Virus genome (UHGV): UHGV-1754446
DNA: 20,188 nt
Strand: one strand, 5' to 3'
Origin: a virus
This document shows, one piece after another, positions 1 to 17,666 of this stretch. Every line of letters begins with the position of its first letter. Positions within the stretch are counted from its first letter, which is position 1. The position numbers were made by a program, and so were the translations under genes. Under the pieces are notes generated by a model. That model did not search any database and had not been told where the DNA came from. It saw only the letters and a program-made list of their open reading frames with translations.

Positions 1-85
1 AGTAAGATATAATCAAGAAGAGCATCTTCTGTATGTCAGCAACTATACTTGTAAAGCCGATGATAGCATACTTTATGAAATAAGT

Positions 86-2650
86 GTGGATTTAACAGAC
101 ACCCTGACCGTGTCTCAATCCTCATTCAGAGCACAGCTCGATTCCATAAAAACAGAGATACTTACATCCCTGACTTATGGCATGCGTGGTGACATTTTAG
201 CACAATGCGCGAAGTATTTTCTGCGGAAAGACAGTCCGGACACAGCCTTGGATATTATAACATTCCTCAAAGGGCTGCTTGTGGGAGACGGAGACTACGG
301 CATAGATGCGGACGGTACCGCACGGCTGAAGAAACTTCTTGCCGACGAAGCCACAATGAAAACGCTGACCGTGACAGGAAGGGCACATTTCTTCGAGCTT
401 GTCATAGATGAGCTGAACAGCGTCGGAGGTCAACTGATACTGTCCGCTGCTAACTGCACGGTACGCTCTGTCGAAAGAATAAGCGGAGCATGGCGTCTGT
501 GGTGGCTGGCGGAGGACAGCGACGGCAGAGCCGTGCAGAACATGTGGAAGGTCGGAGACCAGGCTCTGGCAATGACATCCAATCTTGCCGAGGGGACATC
601 ATATGATGCAGGAAACAGACTATGGTGGAGACTTGTCACGGCAACAGGGAGCGGAACACGGAACATTGACGGTGAGGACAGAAAGTGCCATTGGATTGAA
701 GTGTCTGAAGCCACGTGCGCGGCTGACAGCCTTGAGCCTGCAGAGGGTGACAGCGTTTGTCTGTGCGGACACCGTGGTGACGACACAGCGCGCAGCCATG
801 CGATAATAATAGCCGCCCACTCCACTCCGGATACCGAGCTGGAGAGTCCGTCATTCGCGCAATACAACGGAATCACAAGTTTTTCTCTAAGCCAGTACCG
901 CACGACATGGTTCGCGGCTAACGGCAATAAGATAAGAGGCGAGCTGGATGTGGACACTTCCGGTCTTGTCAGCTACACGCACCTTGCATGGGGAAACGGT
1001 CCGGACGACTGGACAAAGGACAAATCCCAGAGCACGGCAAAAGACTGGCTCATGCTCGGCATATGCACAGACCGCACGGAGAGCGACGTGGCTCTCGTCT
1101 ACAGCGACTATGCATGGTCAAGGATTAAAGGTACTGACGGAAAGACCACATACTTCCATGTGAAATATTCTTCAAACGAGAACGGAAATCCCATGACAGA
1201 GACGCCCAACCTCTACATCGGCACATACGTTGACTTCACTGAGGCAGACAGCAACGACCCCTCGGACTACACGTGGTCACGCTTCCAAGGATATGACGGG
1301 GAGCAGGGGATACCGGGGAAAAACGGTACGGACGGAAAGACAAGCTACCTTCACATCAAATATTCCGACGACGGGGGAAAGACGTTCACCGCCAGCAACG
1401 GTGAGACACCGGGTGCGTGGCTCGGGCAATGCGTAGACTTCAACTCATATGACCCGACAAGCGTTACCTCATATAAGTGGACACGGATACGCGGTGAGGA
1501 CGGAGCGGACGGAAGTGACGGTGAACCCGGCACGGACGGGCAGGACGGATTCTCGTGGGCACTTGACCCTGCCGCCATAACATTGGAGGCTGACAGTGAC
1601 GGTGTGGTGAGCATGCAGGATGCGACATCACGTCTGCGCGCATGGCTCGGCACGCGCGAGATGACTGTCACCATTACCGCCATAGAGCCAGTGCACTGTC
1701 TTGCGTCACGCAACGGGGCGCAGGTTACAATAACCGCAATAGGGACATATACGGCAGACTGGGGAGGTTCGGTGCCGTACGGAGCGGGATGGGTGCAGAT
1801 TACGGCACAGGCAACACTGGGAGGAGAGACCCGCAGTGTGAGCTGCCGCCTGTCCTTCACTGTATCGTCCATGGCACTCTCATCGCAGATTAAGGCTGAG
1901 ACGGACAGCATAAGCCTTAAAGTCGGCTATCTTGGGGCAAAGGACGGAAACATGGTGACCACTCCTGACATATTCCTGACAGGGAACGGGAACAAGACAT
2001 ACACAATCGGGGACATGTCAAGCCTGCGCGGAAAGACAATAACGGTATCATGCCTTGTCAAGACCGTATCCGCGGTTCCGGCGGCATCTGGCAACAGACG
2101 TATCGGCATGGAGCCCATGGTACGGTATGCCGACGGCAGCACGCAGTATCTCGGAACATGGAGGCAGATAACATCCACGGACACGTTCGAGGGACGCATA
2201 AGCTCCACACACAGGATACAGGATAAGGCTGTGGCGTCGGTAGAACAGTGTAACCTGTATATACAGGGCATATCATCAGGATACTCGTCCGTATCGCGTC
2301 CAAAGATAGAGACAGGTGCGGACGCGACAGACTGGGGACTCAGCGCGGAGGACAGGCTTAAAAGACCGAATCTTCTTCCAGGAACATCGGACTTCAGCCA
2401 ATGCACCGTACAGGATACCGTAGAGGCAGGAGCATACACGACACCTTACGGAGAAAAAATAAGCGTGGCACACGGTGTGAACGAAGCCGGGACATCATAC
2501 AAGGACGTCATCACATGGCGCAACGTGGTGCCCGAGCCGGGCGTACAGTATACGCTCTCATTCTGGGCGCGCGGCACAGGCAGCATCGGCTCGTACCGAA
2601 CTGCACCGACTGGGTCACAAGTCCGGGGACGAAGAACCAGACAGGTGTGA
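86..2650 (+). CDS. Phage tail fibre / receptor-binding protein, N-terminal and central part (probably 5'-truncated by the window edge; 3' end set by a frameshift)
   Basis: 854-aa ORF; the same frame is open from nt 2 to 86, so the gene likely begins upstream of the window (86 is a GTG). Three tandem ~60-aa repeats ([ST]Y.H[LVI].[WY]S ... Y.W[ST]R[IF].G) joined by Gly-X-Y collagen-like linkers (GTDGKT, GEDGADGSDGEPGTDGQDG), typical of phage fibres. The C-terminus (YTLSFWARGTGSIGSY) is the first half of a CBM-like jelly-roll domain whose second half lies in another frame downstream. Confidence 0.8.
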   Translation: MDLTDTLTVSQSSFRAQLDSIKTEILTSLTYGMRGDILAQCAKYFLRKDSPDTALDIITFLKGLLVGDGDYGIDADGTARLKKLLADEATMKTLTVTGRAHFFELVIDELNSVGGQLILSAANCTVRSVERISGAWRLWWLAEDSDGRAVQNMWKVGDQALAMTSNLAEGTSYDAGNRLWWRLVTATGSGTRNIDGEDRKCHWIEVSEATCAADSLEPAEGDSVCLCGHRGDDTARSHAIIIAAHSTPDTELESPSFAQYNGITSFSLSQYRTTWFAANGNKIRGELDVDTSGLVSYTHLAWGNGPDDWTKDKSQSTAKDWLMLGICTDRTESDVALVYSDYAWSRIKGTDGKTTYFHVKYSSNENGNPMTETPNLYIGTYVDFTEADSNDPSDYTWSRFQGYDGEQGIPGKNGTDGKTSYLHIKYSDDGGKTFTASNGETPGAWLGQCVDFNSYDPTSVTSYKWTRIRGEDGADGSDGEPGTDGQDGFSWALDPAAITLEADSDGVVSMQDATSRLRAWLGTREMTVTITAIEPVHCLASRNGAQVTITAIGTYTADWGGSVPYGAGWVQITAQATLGGETRSVSCRLSFTVSSMALSSQIKAETDSISLKVGYLGAKDGNMVTTPDIFLTGNGNKTYTIGDMSSLRGKTITVSCLVKTVSAVPAASGNRRIGMEPMVRYADGSTQYLGTWRQITSTDTFEGRISSTHRIQDKAVASVEQCNLYIQGISSGYSSVSRPKIETGADATDWGLSAEDRLKRPNLLPGTSDFSQCTVQDTVEAGAYTTPYGEKISVAHGVNEAGTSYKDVITWRNVVPEPGVQYTLSFWARGTGSIGSYRTAPTGSQVRGRRTRQV

Positions 2651-3771
2651 CAGACGGATTCGTACAGTTCACGCTTGAAAGCGGATGGAACCGCTACCAG
2701 GTGACATGGAGCACACGCAACGATGTAAGCGGAGCGAAAAGTCTCATAGCGGCACGGCTCATGCCGGACAGTTCTGCACAGGGAGAGATCTGGATATGCG
2801 GAGTGAAGCTGGAGAAAGGCAGCGAGGCGACAGACTGGCGTTCGGAGACAATCACGCACGACGAGCTGCAGGCGACAGGAATAGACATTGAGCACAAGCG
2901 CATAAAGGTCACTGCCGACAACTTCGAGATACAGAACAACTCAGGCGAGACTGTCACCACTGTCGACGAGGCGGGCACCCTTACAGGTGTGATGCTCCGC
3001 ACTATGGACGAAGGACAGGGGCATGTGGAGATAAAGGGAGGACTGATTGAGGTAAAGAACCCTAACGGTGTGACCAACATCAAAATGGGATATAACGGCT
3101 CATACATGGTACTGTCATATTATGACAATGACGGTACGTTCCTTTATGACCTCGGACCGTGGGGACTGTCCGGCAAGGATGTCTCGGAAGAACGGTGGGA
3201 GACCAGCAGCAAATACGGACGCCTGCAGCTGACAGGGACCACATTCTCCACCGTAGGCGACATCGTTGGCAACAAACAGATAATGAACACCATATTCCAA
3301 TATGGTCATGTGTACACGAAAACACCTTTGTACATGTATCTTGCAGGGCGCGTAAACGACACATATCTCAGCGGTGACTACGCCTCCACTCCGGAGATTG
3401 CAAGAGCCGCGAACGGCAGATGGTTCATGGAGCAGGGTAATGTGACCACGGCACAGGCTGTCACAGGAATGTGGGCGCAGGACAATCCGGAATCGTTCAT
3501 GATAGGCTCGCCTATGGACACACCGCCAATGGACTATACGCGATATGAAGATGACTATGCGGAAAAGGTGGATTTCTCCAGACAATGGTGCTCGCGCAAT
3601 GTGTACAGATTCTCGAACATCGGAATCGTACAACCGGGAAGCGGCACCGTATACTACGGCAGCATGATAACGACAACAGCCGTATACATGAATTATGACA
3701 GGGTGCAGATGATACAGATTAATCGCATTGACGATGATGACACGGACACGAACGGAAACATATATTTATGA
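2647..3771 (+). CDS. Tail fibre C-terminal part (CBM-like beta-sandwich plus distal domain); probably the same gene as 86..2650 across a frameshift
   Basis: Frame of ORF 2401..3771. The first ~65 codons from the ATG at 2401 are Arg-rich and look non-coding; protein-like sequence starts about 2590-2650 (LVPNCTDWVTSPGTKNQTGVTDGFVQFTLESGWNRYQVTW ... GEIWICGVKLEKGSEATDW). 2647 is the first in-frame GTG after the upstream stop; the true junction is a frameshift between ~2590 and 2645. Confidence 0.7.
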   Translation: MTDGFVQFTLESGWNRYQVTWSTRNDVSGAKSLIAARLMPDSSAQGEIWICGVKLEKGSEATDWRSETITHDELQATGIDIEHKRIKVTADNFEIQNNSGETVTTVDEAGTLTGVMLRTMDEGQGHVEIKGGLIEVKNPNGVTNIKMGYNGSYMVLSYYDNDGTFLYDLGPWGLSGKDVSEERWETSSKYGRLQLTGTTFSTVGDIVGNKQIMNTIFQYGHVYTKTPLYMYLAGRVNDTYLSGDYASTPEIARAANGRWFMEQGNVTTAQAVTGMWAQDNPESFMIGSPMDTPPMDYTRYEDDYAEKVDFSRQWCSRNVYRFSNIGIVQPGSGTVYYGSMITTTAVYMNYDRVQMIQINRIDDDDTDTNGNIYL

Positions 3772-7888: not shown

Positions 7889-8482
7889 ATGGAAAAGTTT
7901 AAAGTTATACTTGATGCGGGACACGGAAGGGACACCGCAGGGAAACGTTCGCCTGACGGACGCCTGCTCGAATACGCATACGCCCGTGAGATTGCAGTGC
8001 GTCTTGAAAGGGAACTCAAGGCACGTGGATATGACGCGCAGCGCATTGTGCCCGAGGAAAACGACATCTGCCTGAAAGAGCGGTGCGAAAGGGCAAACAG
8101 AATTTATGCCGCGACAGGAAAGAAAGCGATACTTGTCTCAATACACTGTAACGCGGCTGGTGCCGACGGCAAATGGCATGACGCCAGAGGATGGTCGGCT
8201 TATGTCTCGCGCAACGCTTCAAAGAAGAGCAAAGAGCTCGCCTGCCGTCTGATTGACGCGGCAGAGACACAAGGACTGAAAGTCCGAAGATACTCACAGG
8301 ATGAGCCATATTGGACACAGAATCTCGCAATATGCCGTGACACAAATTGTCCCGCAGTCCTGACTGAAAACCTTTTTCAGGACAACCGGGAGGACGTGGA
8401 CTATCTGCTGAGCGAGAAAGGCAAGCGAACCATTGTGGAGCTGCACGTGGAAGGCATCATGGCGTACTTGGGGAAAGTGTGA
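7889..8482 (+). CDS. N-acetylmuramoyl-L-alanine amidase (Amidase_3 / AmiC-type catalytic domain), endolysin
   Basis: Motifs ILDAGHGRDTAGKRSPDG, EYAYAREIA, ILVSIHCNAAG and PAVLTENLFQDN match the Zn-amidase Amidase_3 signature (DxGHGG ... SIHxNA ... E-N-fF). 197 aa with no obvious cell-wall-binding domain. Confidence 0.9.
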   Translation: MEKFKVILDAGHGRDTAGKRSPDGRLLEYAYAREIAVRLERELKARGYDAQRIVPEENDICLKERCERANRIYAATGKKAILVSIHCNAAGADGKWHDARGWSAYVSRNASKKSKELACRLIDAAETQGLKVRRYSQDEPYWTQNLAICRDTNCPAVLTENLFQDNREDVDYLLSEKGKRTIVELHVEGIMAYLGKV

Positions 8483-11201: not shown

Positions 11202-11565
11202 CAGATTCCTCCTTTTCTGAGTTTATAGATACGAACAATCTCTCGTAGTCATCACAACTGATTTCAAAGCAGTTCTGACTTATTACTCCGTCAGAATCCC
11301 CGAAAACGTAAAACGGGGTATACGGACTGTATGTCTTCAGGACACCCACATCCTTTTTGTTGTCCTGCCTGTGTCTGATATAGAACCAGTAATGAGGTCT
11401 TTTGTAACCGACACACCATAGCAGCATAAGGACAAACAACAAGAAGAAAAAACAGAAAAACCATTTCGGCAGGAAAACGTCAATCAGAAAGAATGTAACC
11501 CATGCCGTTACCATTACGGCGAAAGCCTCAAAAGATGTCTTGTAATCAAAATTTTTCATTTTCAT
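11182..11565 (-). CDS. Small integral membrane protein
   Basis: Hydrophobic segments FAVMVTAWVTFFLIDVF and FFCFFFLLFVLMLLWCVGY. Preferred start is the ATG at 11565 (MKMKNFDYK); the ORF track extends to 11592, which would overlap the upstream gene by 20 nt. Confidence 0.6.
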   Translation of the reverse strand: MKMKNFDYKTSFEAFAVMVTAWVTFFLIDVFLPKWFFCFFFLLFVLMLLWCVGYKRPHYWFYIRHRQDNKKDVGVLKTYSPYTPFYVFGDSDGVISQNCFEISCDDYERLFVSINSEKEESDDTDAK

Positions 11566-12927: not shown

Positions 12928-13184
12928 TGCTGACCTCCTTTCTTCAAATCATTCAAAGCCTTGTCATTGCAGCTTTTACAAAACAATTTATTGAGAGTTC
13001 CTTTTAGCATGACTAAATAGACATCATCGTCATCCTTGAACTTGCGGTTGCAATTAAAACAAAGCCTTTGAACATAAAGCCCTATACTTTCTCTCGACTT
13101 GCGGAACTGCCAGAATTTCAAGAATGGCTTATCAACAGCGTTTAGTACCTCGTATTCACGTTTGGTGATTTTCACTACTTTCAT
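12924..13184 (-). CDS. Small Zn-ribbon-like protein (CxxC ... CxxC)
   Basis: 86 aa with CFNCNRK ... CKSCND; ATGA-type overlap with neighbours on both sides. Confidence 0.65.
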   Translation of the reverse strand: MKVVKITKREYEVLNAVDKPFLKFWQFRKSRESIGLYVQRLCFNCNRKFKDDDDVYLVMLKGTLNKLFCKSCNDKALNDLKKGGQQ

Positions 13185-13555
13185 TTTATACCTCCTTTCA
13201 GTAGCTCTGGGTTGTCGTGGATGTTGCCGATTATCGTTGCTTTATCGGTAGGAAGGAAGCCTAATCTTTCAATACCTCCGATAAAAGAGCATTCAGAATC
13301 ACTATATTCCACATCCACAATATCTCCGTCTGGAAATTGAATAATATCCCCTTCGTAAATCTCCTTCCCCTTTTTATCATACAAGCCTGTGAACTGGCTT
13401 ACGGTGGAGGGGGCGATTTCTCGTTTCCACACGGCATTAGAGCTGTCGCTCTTTTCGAGAATGTTGCAGTCTCCGTCCGCCCATATTAAAAGCGAACCAT
13501 AGCACCACTCATCGTTTGCAAGGCGTTTGCCTCTGAACTTGATTGCTCGTTTCAT
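13181..13555 (-). CDS. YopX-family phage protein
   Basis: N-terminal IKFRGKRLANDEWCYGSL and C-terminal IGNIHDNPELL match the YopX signature (KFR.W ... YG ... GNI[HY][DE]NPELL). Confidence 0.8.
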   Translation of the reverse strand: MKRAIKFRGKRLANDEWCYGSLLIWADGDCNILEKSDSSNAVWKREIAPSTVSQFTGLYDKKGKEIYEGDIIQFPDGDIVDVEYSDSECSFIGGIERLGFLPTDKATIIGNIHDNPELLKGGIK

Positions 13556-13863
13556 GACCGCACCTCCTTTCCGTCGGACAGAAGGTCGTCAAGATAGGCG
13601 AACTTGTCAACCTCTCCCCATAATCGTTCAAACGACAGGTCGCGCAGGTCTTTGTAGACAGCGGCATTCCCGTTCTTGAATAAGACGAGTGTCTTGCGCT
13701 TAGGTTGGCAAGATACAGTGCCGTTGTGCCACACGGCGTTGATGCGCCAGTTGGCACCATCTATAAACCCATGTTCATAATACGGCACGTATTTTGGATT
13801 GAAGATGCTGTTGTCAATAACACAACTTTCTGTTGCCGCCTTTTCAATCTGTTCTCTTGTCAT
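13552..13863 (-). CDS. Hypothetical protein (103 aa)
   Basis: ORF coupled to the downstream YopX gene by a 4-nt overlap. No motif recognised. Confidence 0.7.
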   Translation of the reverse strand: MTREQIEKAATESCVIDNSIFNPKYVPYYEHGFIDGANWRINAVWHNGTVSCQPKRKTLVLFKNGNAAVYKDLRDLSFERLWGEVDKFAYLDDLLSDGKEVRS

Positions 13864-13896
13864 ATCTTATTTGTATTAATATTCTTTCCCTCCATT

Positions 13897-14061
13897 TTAT
13901 CTTGTGATTTTAGAGGAAATTTTCCTTGTATTTCCTTTGTTTTCCTTTGCCAAACACTCATTGCCACATCTTCTGCCCACGTCGTACTTATCGCACCATC
14001 CGTCTCCGTAGAAGCCTTCGTTAATGAAGTGGATACATGAGCCGCAGTGTCTTGCTTTCAT
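13897..14061 (-). CDS. Small Cys-rich protein (54 aa, putative Zn-binding), coupled to the PAPS-reductase-like gene
   Basis: Not in the ORF track (below 60 aa). Own translation: MKARHCGSCIHFINEGFYGDGWCDKYDVGRRCGNECLAKENKGNTRKISSKITR. Its ATG overlaps the stop of 14058..14975 (ATGA). Confidence 0.4.
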   Translation of the reverse strand: MKARHCGSCIHFINEGFYGDGWCDKYDVGRRCGNECLAKENKGNTRKISSKITR

Positions 14062-14975
14062 TTTTCGTCGTCTTTAAATTCAAATTTCTGTTGCAGGAAC
14101 TCGTCAGCGTAGAACTGCTTGTAGCTCTTGTCGCTTATCCACCACCTAAAGCCTGTTTCAGCGTCGTTGAAATTGTGGTCGATATATCCGTTGTCTATCA
14201 GCCATTGGATTGTCTTTATCCAATTGCGTTTGACGTGCGGCCAGCGTTTAGCATCTTCCTTCTTTATCCGTGCGTTCGACATAGGGCAACAGATGCAGCC
14301 AATGCGTGTATAACCCTCGTCGTAGAGTTCGCAGTGTGGTATGCCGTTCATGTTAAGGAACTCCCACACGTCGCGCTCCGTCCAATAGATTATGGGCGAT
14401 ACAAGGATTTTGTCCTTACCGCCGACACACGCAACCATGCTCTCCTCATGTTCGCTCCATTGGTCAAAGGTTTCCTCATTGCGCTTGCCCTTTATCTCTG
14501 TGGATATTTCCTCACGTTTTGCACGCCGTGCGCTTTCTTCTTTTCTCACACCGATAAGTGTCACCTTGCCAACGCCTGACGTTTCCTTGAACTCGGCACA
14601 ACACCAACGCAAAGTCCTTGTCGGCAAGATGTGCTTTTTCTTCGCCATTTCGTAAATGCTCATCCGTGGTTTGATTAGCTCCACATCGGGGTATTGCGTC
14701 TTGACGAAGCGGATGACTTCGGGCGGGTCTATGCTCGTAAGGTTCATGTGAGCCTTGAAGCGGACACCGGCCAGCTTTGCGACATGGTAGAGGCATTGGC
14801 TGTCCTTGCCGCCACTGAACGCAAGGTAAAAGCCGTTTTCGGGGTCGAGGCGCAACGCCATTTTCTCCGACTTCCGCAAAAGTTCGACGGAGTGTTCCAG
14901 CTTCCTTGCAAGCGGACGGCTTACCTTTGACATTACGGTGTCGTGGTCAAGCAGTATTATTTCACACGCTTTCAT
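14058..14975 (-). CDS. PP-loop ATP-pyrophosphatase of the PAPS-reductase / TtcA-like (adenine-nucleotide alpha-hydrolase) superfamily
   Basis: PP-loop motif FYLAFSGGKDSQCLYHVA (SGGxDS), plus Cys clusters RWCCAEF and GCICCP that could ligate Fe-S or Zn, as in DndC/TtcA/CysH-like enzymes. I cannot assign the exact subfamily without a profile search. Confidence 0.85.
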   Translation of the reverse strand: MKACEIILLDHDTVMSKVSRPLARKLEHSVELLRKSEKMALRLDPENGFYLAFSGGKDSQCLYHVAKLAGVRFKAHMNLTSIDPPEVIRFVKTQYPDVELIKPRMSIYEMAKKKHILPTRTLRWCCAEFKETSGVGKVTLIGVRKEESARRAKREEISTEIKGKRNEETFDQWSEHEESMVACVGGKDKILVSPIIYWTERDVWEFLNMNGIPHCELYDEGYTRIGCICCPMSNARIKKEDAKRWPHVKRNWIKTIQWLIDNGYIDHNFNDAETGFRWWISDKSYKQFYADEFLQQKFEFKDDEK

Positions 14976-15100
14976 TTTGCCTTGTCTTTAAGTTTGAATA
15001 TAAATTCCATCAGTTGTTTGTTCTGCTGGCGGTACCTGTCAACCTCGGCTTGCAGGAAGTCAATCTCGTTGTGGTACGCCTCACGCTCAAAGTCAGTCAT
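14972..15100 (-). CDS. Small helical protein (42 aa), translationally coupled
   Basis: Own translation: MTDFEREAYHNEIDFLQAEVDRYRQQNKQLMEFIFKLKDKAK. Its stop overlaps the ATG of the PAPS-reductase-like gene. Confidence 0.35.
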   Translation of the reverse strand: MTDFEREAYHNEIDFLQAEVDRYRQQNKQLMEFIFKLKDKAK

Positions 15101-15106
15101 CGTTCA

Positions 15107-15253
15107 CTAATCGTCTACAATGGCTTTTGCTAAACCGAAGAGAAGGATATATATTCCTAACATGAGCAGTACCCATGGGAAACTTGTCAACATCCATATA
15201 GAGGCTGCCACGCAAAGTGCACCGGCATGGATGATTAGTTCAGTTCTGTTCAT
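15107..15253 (-). CDS. Small hydrophobic membrane peptide (48 aa), translationally coupled
   Basis: Own translation: MNRTELIIHAGALCVAASIWMLTSFPWVLLMLGIYILLFGLAKAIVDD. Its ATG overlaps the stop of the radical-SAM gene (ATGA). Confidence 0.35.
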   Translation of the reverse strand: MNRTELIIHAGALCVAASIWMLTSFPWVLLMLGIYILLFGLAKAIVDD

Positions 15254-16155
15254 TGCTTCATATTTTTAAGTTTGTAACTATTCTCATTAAGCCACTTTTG
15301 GAAATACCATAACTGACCGCATCCGCCACCTATATCGTCTTGCCCTGCCGGGTTAAATACTCTCGTATTAAAACCTACGTCATTCATCTTTGAATTAAAG
15401 TCACGGATTAAGTCAAGTTGTCGCTGTATTGATGAATGTACACTTTCATCCTTTTCGCAAATAACAGACAAAGTGACCTCCCATATATCAGGGTTAAATA
15501 ATTCAGAGAGCCTCATAGCATCTTCCATATCATTATTCCCGACATGTACGCAATAATTAAAGAAAGGCTTTCTTCCGACATAAGAAGCCCAAAACTCACC
15601 CGTAGAAGCTATTTGCCGAAGTGTTGACGTATTCGTTGCTATAAGTTTCTTCCTTTTTTCATCTGTACTTTCATGTACTGAAAATTGAAGACCTACTTTA
15701 TCTATTTCTTTCGATAGTGCAATAAAATCAGACATGTATAAATACATCATGTGAGGGGCAGAAGTGCTTACAAGAAGTTGTGCGTTTGGATATTTCACAT
15801 GTAGACTTTCTATTGCAGGCTGCAATGCCGAGTAGTTGTAAAAAGGCTCTCCCATGCTCATAAACATAATTTGGAACTTTTTAATGTCATCAGTGCGGCA
15901 ATCAATAGTAGATAATGCCCCATCAATCTGTTGTATTATTTCGTCAGTAGAAAGATTTCTGACAAAAAATTTGCCTGTTCCGCAGAAAGAACATCCAACT
16001 GGACAACCGCTTTGAACCGAACAACATATAACTGTCCTTTTTTTGTATTCTCCATATCTATAAAGAACAGTTTCAGCAATAGCATTTGGCTTGTCCCACT
16101 CAAACACGAATTTCTTTACATTCGTATCACTTGATTCAAATACTTTTGTTTTCAT
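15250..16155 (-). CDS. Radical-SAM methyltransferase of the RlmN/Cfr family (N-terminally minimal form)
   Basis: RTVICCSVQSGCPVGCSFCGTGKFFVRNLSTDEIIQQI aligns with the E. coli RlmN region [38 protein letters not shown] (CxxxCxxC plus the upstream mechanistic Cys). MFMSMGEP matches VMMGMGEP, STSAP matches STSG, FSVHESTDE matches ISLHAPNDE, and the C-terminal DDIGGGCGQL matches DDIDAACGQL (second catalytic Cys). At 301 aa it lacks the ~80-aa N-terminal domain of RlmN. Confidence 0.88.
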   Translation of the reverse strand: MKTKVFESSDTNVKKFVFEWDKPNAIAETVLYRYGEYKKRTVICCSVQSGCPVGCSFCGTGKFFVRNLSTDEIIQQIDGALSTIDCRTDDIKKFQIMFMSMGEPFYNYSALQPAIESLHVKYPNAQLLVSTSAPHMMYLYMSDFIALSKEIDKVGLQFSVHESTDEKRKKLIATNTSTLRQIASTGEFWASYVGRKPFFNYCVHVGNNDMEDAMRLSELFNPDIWEVTLSVICEKDESVHSSIQRQLDLIRDFNSKMNDVGFNTRVFNPAGQDDIGGGCGQLWYFQKWLNENSYKLKNMKQ

Positions 16156-16361
16156 TTGCCGTATGTTTTTGTTTTCTTGGGTTTGTAACTATCGGTTTCT
16201 TCGTCCCACTCCACGCAGTCGGGGCAGTAGAGTTTGCCGTCGATTTCTTCCCAATCGCACATCTTCGCCATATACCTTGCCATACCTTCACTAAATTCAT
16301 AGCCATGCTTACTTCCGCACCCGTCGCACACGGCTTGGTACATCGTCACTTTCTGTTTCAT
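16152..16361 (-). CDS. Small Zn-ribbon protein (CDGCGS ... CPDC)
   Basis: 69 aa with two CxxC pairs; its stop overlaps the ATG of the radical-SAM gene. Confidence 0.65.
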   Translation of the reverse strand: MKQKVTMYQAVCDGCGSKHGYEFSEGMARYMAKMCDWEEIDGKLYCPDCVEWDEETDSYKPKKTKTYGK

Positions 16362-16363
16362 AA

Positions 16364-16645
16364 TCAGTAATATCTTATTACATCTTGATTCATTAAAGCT
16401 TTCATAAAAGACTCCTTTTCTTCATCTGTGGCTTTCCTTACATTCGCACCCCAACAGAAGTTTCCCCATCCCGTACTTTTCTTGATTATACCGTCATTCC
16501 ATCCAATCAAAATGCCGTATCCGTCACCATCTACATATCCGTTATGGATGAATACCCTTTGATTTTCGGGGTGGTATTTCGCAGATTCTTCATTTGTTGG
16601 AATTCCATATAGGAACTCACCCACGTTATATTCACTTCTTTTCAT
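16364..16645 (-). CDS. Hypothetical protein (93 aa)
   Basis: ORF within the coupled operon. No motif recognised. Confidence 0.65.
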   Translation of the reverse strand: MKRSEYNVGEFLYGIPTNEESAKYHPENQRVFIHNGYVDGDGYGILIGWNDGIIKKSTGWGNFCWGANVRKATDEEKESFMKALMNQDVIRYY

Positions 16646-16848
16646 ATCTTTACATATTGGCTACACGCCTGTTGGTTGCACTTAACTTTCTGTAAACAAT
16701 TGAACGTGCGGTTACTCTTGCGCACACGGCAGTAGGATATTACTTTGCTTCCACATTCCCACCGCTGGCGGTGAATACAAGTGCGGCACGTTTCTAAGGT
16801 TGATTCTTGCGGCTGAATGGTGTCAGCATTGCTAAATAAATCACTCAT
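16642..16848 (-). CDS. Small Cys-rich protein (68 aa)
   Basis: CRTCIHRQRWECGSKVISYCRVRK ... C...C; 4-nt overlaps with both neighbours. Confidence 0.55.
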   Translation of the reverse strand: MSDLFSNADTIQPQESTLETCRTCIHRQRWECGSKVISYCRVRKSNRTFNCLQKVKCNQQACSQYVKI

Positions 16849-17666
16849 AGCAGATCCTTTGCTTCTTCAATCAGGTCACCAAATGTGTCTAAGAACTGGT
16901 CGCGGACTTCGGGGGTGGGGAAAGCCAATATCCGGCTCACCGTCCAATAAGAGTTCTTTTCTTTCTTATTTGCTTTGTAACTAATGCAATATTTCATTTT
17001 ATCATCCGTCCAATACGGCTTCCACCCCAATTGCTTCCACCAGGCGTTGCGGCAGACGAGAAGCTGGCAGAGGGCGAGCATGGGCTTGCCGAGACCTTGC
17101 GGCAACATGTTTCTGTCGCTATCACCAAACAGACGTCCGTCATCGGACAATTCGCTTATACTGCATTTATAAACTTCGCTATCTTCTTCTATCAATTCCA
17201 CGTCATTGATGCTACACAGGCATTTCAGCCACGTCTTGGGCAACCCTTTCTTCTTCTCTTTCAGCACGATGTTGCCTCGTTCGTCCAGGTGGTCGAACTC
17301 CCAGCCGTCGGGGACTGTAATTGTCTTTTCGTTTGTTTCCATATCTTCTTTGTTTTGTTGTTTAACTTCGATGTCTACGGTGTTGTTGACTGCGTTGTAG
17401 TATGCGAACGGTTCTTTGGACAGGACAACAGGGAATTTCACTCCTGCATACCGCTGCACAATGTGGTCGTAAAGAGGGTAAGGGTCGCCGACGGGTTCGA
17501 GCTTCTTGCATTTCGCTTTCACCCAACAATCTCTATTTCCATAGAAACTTGCACAATTTAAATCTTTAAATGATGCACAATCTTTGCAATAATCATACAT
17601 ATCATCTTTCACGCACTGGTACCACTCTCCGTTGTGCTCAAATATCTCTCCTATCTTCCGTTCCAT
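16845..17666 (-). CDS. Hypothetical protein with Cys-rich N-terminus (273 aa)
   Basis: Long ORF; N-terminus CKDCASFKDLNCASFYGNRDCWVKAKC suggests a metal-binding module. No family recognised. Confidence 0.75.
   Translation of the reverse strand: MERKIGEIFEHNGEWYQCVKDDMYDYCKDCASFKDLNCASFYGNRDCWVKAKCKKLEPVGDPYPLYDHIVQRYAGVKFPVVLSKEPFAYYNAVNNTVDIEVKQQNKEDMETNEKTITVPDGWEFDHLDERGNIVLKEKKKGLPKTWLKCLCSINDVELIEEDSEVYKCSISELSDDGRLFGDSDRNMLPQGLGKPMLALCQLLVCRNAWWKQLGWKPYWTDDKMKYCISYKANKKEKNSYWTVSRILAFPTPEVRDQFLDTFGDLIEEAKDLL

Follow-up and report, generated by a model that had tools for sequence, protein, structure and literature searches.

We found that positions 13181-16361 of a 20,188-nucleotide (nt) stretch of UHGV virus genome UHGV-1754446 (the whole stretch is called the window here) are probably an ordinary mosaic accessory operon, in which the tight geometry of the gene junctions reflects packing and cassette exchange and not a partnership between micro-proteins and enzymes. 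On its minus strand, this region carries three micro-genes, which encode proteins of 48, 42 and 54 amino acids (aa) that we call TM48, cc42 and Cys54, together with genes for a radical-SAM enzyme and a PAPS-reductase-like PP-loop enzyme. The initial annotation had read the start-stop overlaps (ATGA) at these genes as an argument that the micro-proteins are real and function with the two enzymes. The first part of this proposal holds up, and the second fails because the same ATGA geometry is found with many unrelated neighbours.

We propose that the region belongs to a long accessory operon, read in one direction, in a temperate tailed phage that infects gut Bacteroidales; in this operon, genes of any size would be packed end to end, and a ribosome ending one gene would restart on the next at ATGA (termination-reinitiation). 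The enzyme genes would be cassettes, gained and lost at conserved linkers of ~30 nt that encode '...(F/I/L)KDxxK-stop' overlapping 'MKA...', and exchange at these linkers would leave the coupling geometry intact. The micro-proteins themselves are most likely autonomous small accessory or host-interaction proteins.

On the minus strand, the radical-SAM gene (15250..16155; 301 aa, an RlmN/Cfr-like methyl-synthase core without the N-terminal domain) runs by ATGA into TM48 (15107..15253; a 48-aa micro-protein with two predicted hydrophobic helices), which is followed after a 6-nt gap by cc42 (14972..15100; a 42-aa micro-protein predicted as a single helix with leucine-zipper-like heptads). The cc42 stop overlaps, again as ATGA, the start of the PAPS-reductase gene (14058..14975; 305 aa, PAPS_reduct), whose stop overlaps in the same way the start of Cys54 (13897..14061; a 54-aa Cys-rich micro-protein), and a 33-nt gap then leads to the next gene. 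The three micro-genes had been placed correctly at first, and the five junctions named then (13555, 14061, 14975, 15253 and 16155) are all 4-nt ATGA overlaps. The statement that the micro-genes fit perfectly into these overlaps is right for four of their six ends; the other two ends lie at the 6-nt and 33-nt gaps.

Gene neighbourhoods and junction linkers

Accessory gene content is mosaic, with neighbouring genes differing widely between related loci, and the PAPS-reductase gene is a repeat-flanked cassette. It lies between two copies of a 32-nt direct repeat (D1) with 81% identity: the upstream copy (14968..14999) holds the 3' end of cc42, ATGA and the first PAPS-reductase codons, and the downstream copy (14054..14085) holds the 3' end of the PAPS-reductase gene, ATGA and the first Cys54 codons. 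Anchored at their ATG, the copies share 27 of 35 positions; random ATG-anchored pairs in the block share 11.3 on average (standard deviation 2.6), and the maximum among 20,000 random pairs was 27. In the related locus L070, the gene order is TM54, cc42 and Cys54 (TM54 being a different micro-gene), with cc42 and Cys54 joined by ATGA, so that exactly the PAPS-reductase gene is gone, and both window flanks align there over a common 28-nt stretch. The linker, TTAAAGAC...AAATGAAAGC, also stands 3' of non-homologous micro-genes (TM43 and TM39) in three further loci (L123, L126 and L127). Locus L131 has no PAPS reductase, and its breakpoint falls inside the TTAAAGAC linker, fusing TM43 to the Cys domain.

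Since the linker spans ATGA together with the terminal and initial codons of the genes it joins, an exchange there would keep both the reading frames and the coupling. These sequences make it possible, and we say so tentatively, that the linkers are a recurrent in-frame cassette-exchange site at which enzyme genes are gained or lost by recombination. Under such exchange, recombination between linker copies would insert or remove the PAPS reductase and possibly also the RlmN-like radical-SAM gene, and cc42 and Cys54 would persist partly as carriers of the docking sequences. Cys54 would then often be found beside a PAPS reductase because both lie at one insertion site. A second, weaker direct repeat (D2; 19 nt, 15263..15281 and 16174-16192, 84% identity, spacing 911 nt) has each copy just upstream of an ATGA junction, and the two together flank the radical-SAM gene; D2 may be a chance match.

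The small genes keep changing company. We found cc42 in at least 26 distinct gene contexts, usually ATGA-coupled to its upstream gene. In L040 and L072, a 101-aa protein and the TM54 micro-protein precede it, in L076 and L097 an unrelated protein of 306 aa that has a CxxxCxxC motif, in L111 a different PAPS reductase, and elsewhere proteins of 81, 134, 136 and 214 aa. TM48-family genes are without a radical-SAM neighbour in four of five variants. In L065, the radical-SAM gene, TM48 and cc42 are present, and the PAPS reductase and Cys54 are not.

This distribution bears on whether TM48 and cc42 make up a separate two-part module, in which a membrane hairpin and a soluble coiled coil might, like other small early proteins of phages, act on the host envelope, on cell division or in blocking superinfection. 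Pairing is possible because four of the five TM48 variants directly precede cc42, despite differing upstream partners, and a different hydrophobic micro-open reading frame (micro-ORF), of 34 aa, follows cc42 in other relatives; cc42 also matches the DivIC coiled coil weakly and below the cut-off (E 0.0023). However, a hydrophobic micro-ORF adjoins only 6 of 18 cc42 variants under a strict hydropathy criterion (about 8-9 of 18 when the 34-aa type is counted), one TM48 variant stands alone, and the DivIC match is generic coiled-coil similarity. We regard such a module as rather unlikely, if the best of the alternatives that give the small proteins a defined partner.

Of the three, the Cys54 family alone retains a partial association with an enzyme, in a single PAPS-reductase clade. 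Cys54-family genes lie next to, or one gene downstream of, PAPS reductases of 83-92% identity in four lineages (the window, L123, L126 and L127). Along this series, the adjacent Cys gene falls to 47-61% identity yet stays in place, and this stable position despite divergence suggests a long-standing adjacency, as would be expected if Cys54 alone, for instance as a mini-protein relaying zinc or sulfur, served the PAPS-reductase-like enzyme, with TM48 and cc42 unrelated to either enzyme. The shared, linker-defined cassette site accounts for the adjacency at least as well, however, and four or five Cys-family contexts have no adjacent PAPS reductase (L070, L131, the P0039 and P0048 contexts, and L030), while 4.7 kb separates the two genes in L002. 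For PAPS reductases with at most 85% identity, we found about 25 other neighbour combinations, with no Cys54 or cc42, and the AlphaFold2 model of Cys54 offers this reading no help. We consider a dedicated Cys54 partner improbable, somewhat more so than a TM48-cc42 module.

The radical-SAM protein has relatives of 48-74% identity in 37 further viral loci, where the neighbouring genes are entirely different: TM48 and cc42 are absent from all 37, and a distant PAPS reductase is present in only two. Further relatives of ~50% identity are present in 42 GenBank phage records, the check for micro-genes covering the 37 viral loci only. The hosts of the phages in these records include Salmonella, Vibrio, Stenotrophomonas, Aeromonas and Xanthomonas, whose matched phages are cultured ones, as well as Listeria; the family is thus widely conserved among phages, with members from Proteobacteria and from other hosts.

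Across diverged relatives, TM48 and cc42 do not co-occur with either enzyme, and Cys54 does so partially, with one PAPS-reductase clade. The ATGA geometry follows these genes into every context; hence, it is no evidence of partnership. By these comparisons, TM48, cc42 and Cys54 are independent mosaic units and are unlikely to be helper subunits of the enzymes. The role first suggested for them, as dedicated subunits of the radical-SAM and PP-loop enzymes that handle metal or Fe-S clusters or tether the enzymes to the membrane, with coupling for matched stoichiometry, agrees with the contiguity and coupling of the five genes in the window and its near-identical relatives, with the position of Cys54-family genes directly or one gene downstream of the PAPS reductase in the four lineages, and with the five conserved cysteines and one histidine of Cys54. 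It is nevertheless very unlikely and already largely contradicted by the distribution data, given radical-SAM genes that lack the micro-genes, TM48 and cc42 that occur without a radical-SAM gene, Cys54 that is kept without a PAPS reductase and distant PAPS reductases that have no Cys54 neighbour. RlmN/Cfr enzymes and PAPS/APS reductases supply their own cysteine ligands, and no small subunits are known for either class.

Several points weigh against an ordinary mosaic operon as the full account. We infer a single transcript and termination-reinitiation at ATGA from the geometry alone, and the likeness to the lambda ninR region discussed below is an analogy, implying neither homology nor membership. 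The sampled relatives are mostly gut metagenome contigs from one phage group; hence, their gene contexts are not fully independent. Cys54 adjoins one PAPS-reductase clade in four diverged lineages, so that perhaps a functional link remains for that pair, and the succession of a TM48-type gene and cc42 in four of five variants means that these two may pair.

Small genes under purifying selection

An identical TM48 protein sequence is present on 24 contigs. The 42.9-kb IMG/VR contig IMGVR_UViG_3300045988_136180, matched at 100%, is the source of the window. The micro-genes had at first been described as unannotated, which is inaccurate since the JGI source record (L066) already calls the 48-, 42- and 54-aa genes, as do other assemblies. 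Searches of Pfam, PHROG and NCBIfam gave no match to the three micro-proteins at any family's curated cut-off, cc42 having generic coiled-coil matches only.

For TM48, an exhaustive HMMER scan of 1.84 billion representative proteins returned two diverged relatives of 47 and 53 aa (50% and 42% identity), and two more variants came from loci collected for other purposes; variant identities span 38-50%. All five variants of the family have the two-segment hydrophobic pattern and share invariant I8, G11, C14, W20, F25, L29, G33, L38 and G40. With a peak 19-residue hydropathy of 2.5, TM48 is predicted to be a two-helix membrane hairpin.

In the cc42 family, which comprises 28 homologous clusters (41-62 aa), 13 positions are invariant, and AlphaFold2 models cc42 as a single helix over residues 3-41 with a predicted local distance difference test score (pLDDT) of 95. 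Its conserved residues I13, L16, V20, Y23, N27, L30, I34 and L37 have a 3-4 spacing with Asn at a core position, a pattern that suggests a short dimeric leucine zipper. Among 54 copies of cc42, the sole disrupted one (L119, 42-173) ends after ...DFLQR and is fused to an internally deleted downstream gene; it sits at the end of a 565-kb contig, and L119 may be a decaying prophage.

Proteins of the Cys54 family form ~19 homologous clusters and are 43-89 aa long; residues C6, C9, H11, F12, E15, G19, W22, C23, C32 and C36 are invariant, in the motif C6-x2-C9-x-H11-F...G-W22-C23...C32-x3-C36. Cys54 is most likely a small zinc-binding domain with five conserved cysteines; its AlphaFold2 model, made from a 17-sequence alignment, has a pLDDT of 47 and is uninformative. 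One metagenome protein (P0049) looks like an in-frame chimera, which would come from recombination between two micro-genes: its N-terminal part resembles that of Cys54 (MKARHCGECRHF...), and its C-terminal part that of the 69-aa zinc-ribbon protein encoded upstream of the radical-SAM gene (...IDGKLYCPxCVE.DEET.SYKPKK).

Selection was assessed by Nei-Gojobori counts of the proportions of synonymous (pS) and non-synonymous (pN) differences in homologous pairs. We found pS of 0.70-0.76 and pN of 0.32-0.36 for TM48 against its diverged homologues, 0.57-0.81 and 0.14-0.26 for diverged cc42 pairs, and 0.16-0.26 and 0.03-0.09 for moderately diverged Cys54 pairs. Synonymous change is near saturation and non-synonymous change low, with a ratio of non-synonymous to synonymous rates (dN/dS) of ~0.05-0.3 wherever it could be computed. 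Corroborating this, near relatives (L059-L064, L066 and L068) carry TM48 and cc42 at 100% protein identity with synonymous changes only, and Cys54 at 92-100%.

The check on dN/dS that the initial annotation had suggested thus gives purifying selection, and the frames, whose disruption in close relatives with the flanking genes it had named as the result that would count against it, are intact. With diverged homologues of the same length, key residues kept and pS far above pN, the micro-proteins are real as had been argued, and this comparative evidence shows all three micro-ORFs to be genuine genes that encode proteins and evolve under purifying selection. Both inter-enzyme intervals are also wholly filled by ATG-initiated ORFs of at least 30 aa, which mononucleotide shuffles matched in 0 of 5000 and 1 of 5000 trials, with the limit that part of the filling of interval 13860-14061 is an alternative-frame ORF and not Cys54, so that the comparative evidence outweighs the shuffle test. 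This alternative-frame ORF (13860-13967, minus strand; 33-35 aa) overlaps the 3' half of Cys54 and has an ATGA overlap with the 103-aa gene that starts at 13863. It is open also in L040, L067 (49 aa) and L070, relatives too alike to judge whether it is coding.

The enzymes, the host and the wider operon

The radical-SAM protein matches the RlmN model TIGR00048 at 5.9e-28 over model positions 73-342 of 355, with 97.8 bits against a cut-off of 290, and in the PDB it matches RlmN (6fz6) at 2e-18 and Cfr (9p0p) at 1e-11. It keeps CPVGCSFC at residue 51 (C51-x3-C55-x2-C58), CC at 44-45 and GCGQ at 278, and its cluster motif and both methyl-transfer cysteines align to the RlmN and Cfr structures. 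Hence, RlmN/Cfr and the window protein have in common the CxxxCxxC motif, a cysteine upstream of it and the cysteine of the C-terminal GCGQ; in contrast to RlmN/Cfr, the window protein has no N-terminal domain (roughly 70 residues), and its scores fall far short of all family cut-offs. By these alignments, it is an N-terminally truncated, RlmN-like enzyme and not an equivalog of RlmN or Cfr, and it falls in the phage-specific clade phrog_24834. The PP-loop enzyme matches PF01507 at 3.3e-22 (79.8 bits against a cut-off of 22.5) and phrog_424 at 4e-39, and has SGGKDS at residue 54 and CC...CICC cysteine motifs; its profile match clearly places it in the PF01507 PAPS-reductase family.

The radical-SAM gene adjoins short Cys-containing ORFs, as it would if these were precursors of ribosomally synthesised and post-translationally modified peptides (RiPPs), but the enzyme is RlmN/Cfr-like with no SPASM or RRE domain detected, the micro-genes do not co-occur with it, and full-length conservation with pS far above pN counts equally against spurious ORFs, so that we dismiss both ideas as highly implausible.

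PAPS-reductase relatives of 73-85% identity sit in Bacteroidales metagenome-assembled genomes (Parabacteroides, Bacteroides, Prevotella and Candidatus Onthomorpha); hence, the host is most likely a gut member of the Bacteroidales. A search of GenBank phage DNA with the region returned only a 123-bp match at 71.5% identity, and hence there is no close cultured relative in that collection. Upstream in the same operon, three relatives (L059, L060 and L064, positions 1-678) have a C5 DNA methylase split by an intein (Pfam Hint_2 and Intein_splicing).

From 16361 down to 13181, the minus strand encodes eight consecutive genes, as read from the ORF listing and directly from the strand; five of the seven junctions are 4-nt ATGA overlaps and the remaining two are the 6-nt and 33-nt gaps. 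The first gene (16152..16361, minus) encodes the 69-aa zinc-ribbon-like small protein, and its stop overlaps the radical-SAM start at ATGA 16152-16155; its matches are weak only, to phrog_17873 at 1.3e-5 and, below cut-off, to Pfam DUF7569 and zinc-ribbon families. Beyond Cys54 come a 103-aa protein (13552..13863, minus; phrog_32914 at 7.9e-11), which begins 33 nt past Cys54 and is joined by ATGA to the next gene, and a 124-aa YopX-family protein (13181..13555, minus; PF09643 at 1.8e-19), which has an ATGA overlap at either end and AAGGAGG 7 nt 5' of its start. Over the whole minus-strand chain as assembled from the ORF list (20173 down to 11182), 9 of 19 junctions are ATGA and three others are 2-nt gaps. 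Farther upstream in the chain, a 68-aa protein (16642-16848, minus) and the N-terminus of a 273-aa protein (16845-17666, minus) are further Cys-rich products, joined by ATGA; neither has a credible family match, the 273-aa protein having only a below-cut-off Pfam match at E 0.046.

On the coding strand, a terminator scan gave two weak terminator-like matches, both within genes, with a total count not above that of shuffles. We found no convincing internal terminator in this promoter and terminator scan, whose counts were near those of shuffles and in which Bacteroidales promoters were not modelled. No Rfam family was matched in the window.

The plus-strand genes that converge on the minus-strand block encode a collagen-repeat protein, an Amidase_3 lysin and a helix-turn-helix (HTH)/Peptidase_M78 regulator. 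Positions 1-3500 encode a probable tail fibre, a protein of 854 aa that matches collagen repeats weakly, and GC content is 0.55-0.56 across roughly 500-3500 against 0.39-0.49 in the rest of the window. We set aside holin or type I toxin identities for the small ORFs, as the genes are coupled inside an operon and do not stand alone, and the lysis amidase is on the opposite strand (7889-8482).

The junctions are of two types with respect to translation signals. Those of the micro-genes and the two enzymes are without a Shine-Dalgarno sequence, with A-rich PAPS-reductase and Cys54 starts, and junctions 13555, 13184 and 12927 have a perfect AAGGAGG 6-7 nt upstream of the start. An A-rich upstream context, notably A at -3, favours initiation in Bacteroidetes, which generally do without Shine-Dalgarno sequences (PMC6847099). 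All four AAGGAGG motifs in the window (13563-13569, 13191-13197, 12934-12940 and 11208-11214) are on the minus strand, 6-7 nt before an ATG. Across loci L039-L131, an ATG lies 4-8 nt after AAGGAGG for 74 of 124 distinct motifs on the operon strand against 4 of 19 on the other strand. Bacteroidales ribosomes are reported to be blind to Shine-Dalgarno sequences (PMC9976891, PMC13000453), whereas this phage, with Bacteroidales as its apparent hosts, shows canonical usage of them.

Comparison with known systems

These results add three confirmed small-protein families, from phages of gut Bacteroidales, to the large pool of phage micro-proteins. Phage proteins of <100 aa are short, conserved, very numerous in phage genomes and mostly of unknown function (PMC11323111). 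The three families here are likewise short, conserved and phage-encoded, with the difference that they match no named family at a curated cut-off.

In lambda, the nin region lies between O/P and Q and is dispensable for plaque formation (PMC10695390), and its ninR genes were called a 'chain of interlinked genes' by Kroger & Hobom (1982; cited in PMC10695390). Like ninR, the operon in the window belongs to a temperate phage and consists of accessory genes, most of them small, that all read in one direction, and its genes form a chain linked by start/stop overlaps that is mosaic between relatives. It differs in having a Bacteroidales and not an enterobacterial host. No Nin Pfam family was matched by the window proteins; hence, the comparison with ninR is an analogy. 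In the window, start/stop overlaps come with the packing of the operon as a whole, which is a caution against reading functional partnership from coupling.

As PMC3029335 summarises, mosaic phages have been proposed to exchange modules at short sequences conserved at the module boundaries. The linker described here differs in that it spans ATGA and includes codons of both genes, and recombination may make use of it. In agreement with that proposal, a junction sequence of ~30 nt borders a gene that some relatives have and others cleanly lack. This concrete gain or loss of a single-gene cassette at a conserved junction, with coupling kept, is the most instructive feature of the region and bears on how mosaic phages exchange genes.

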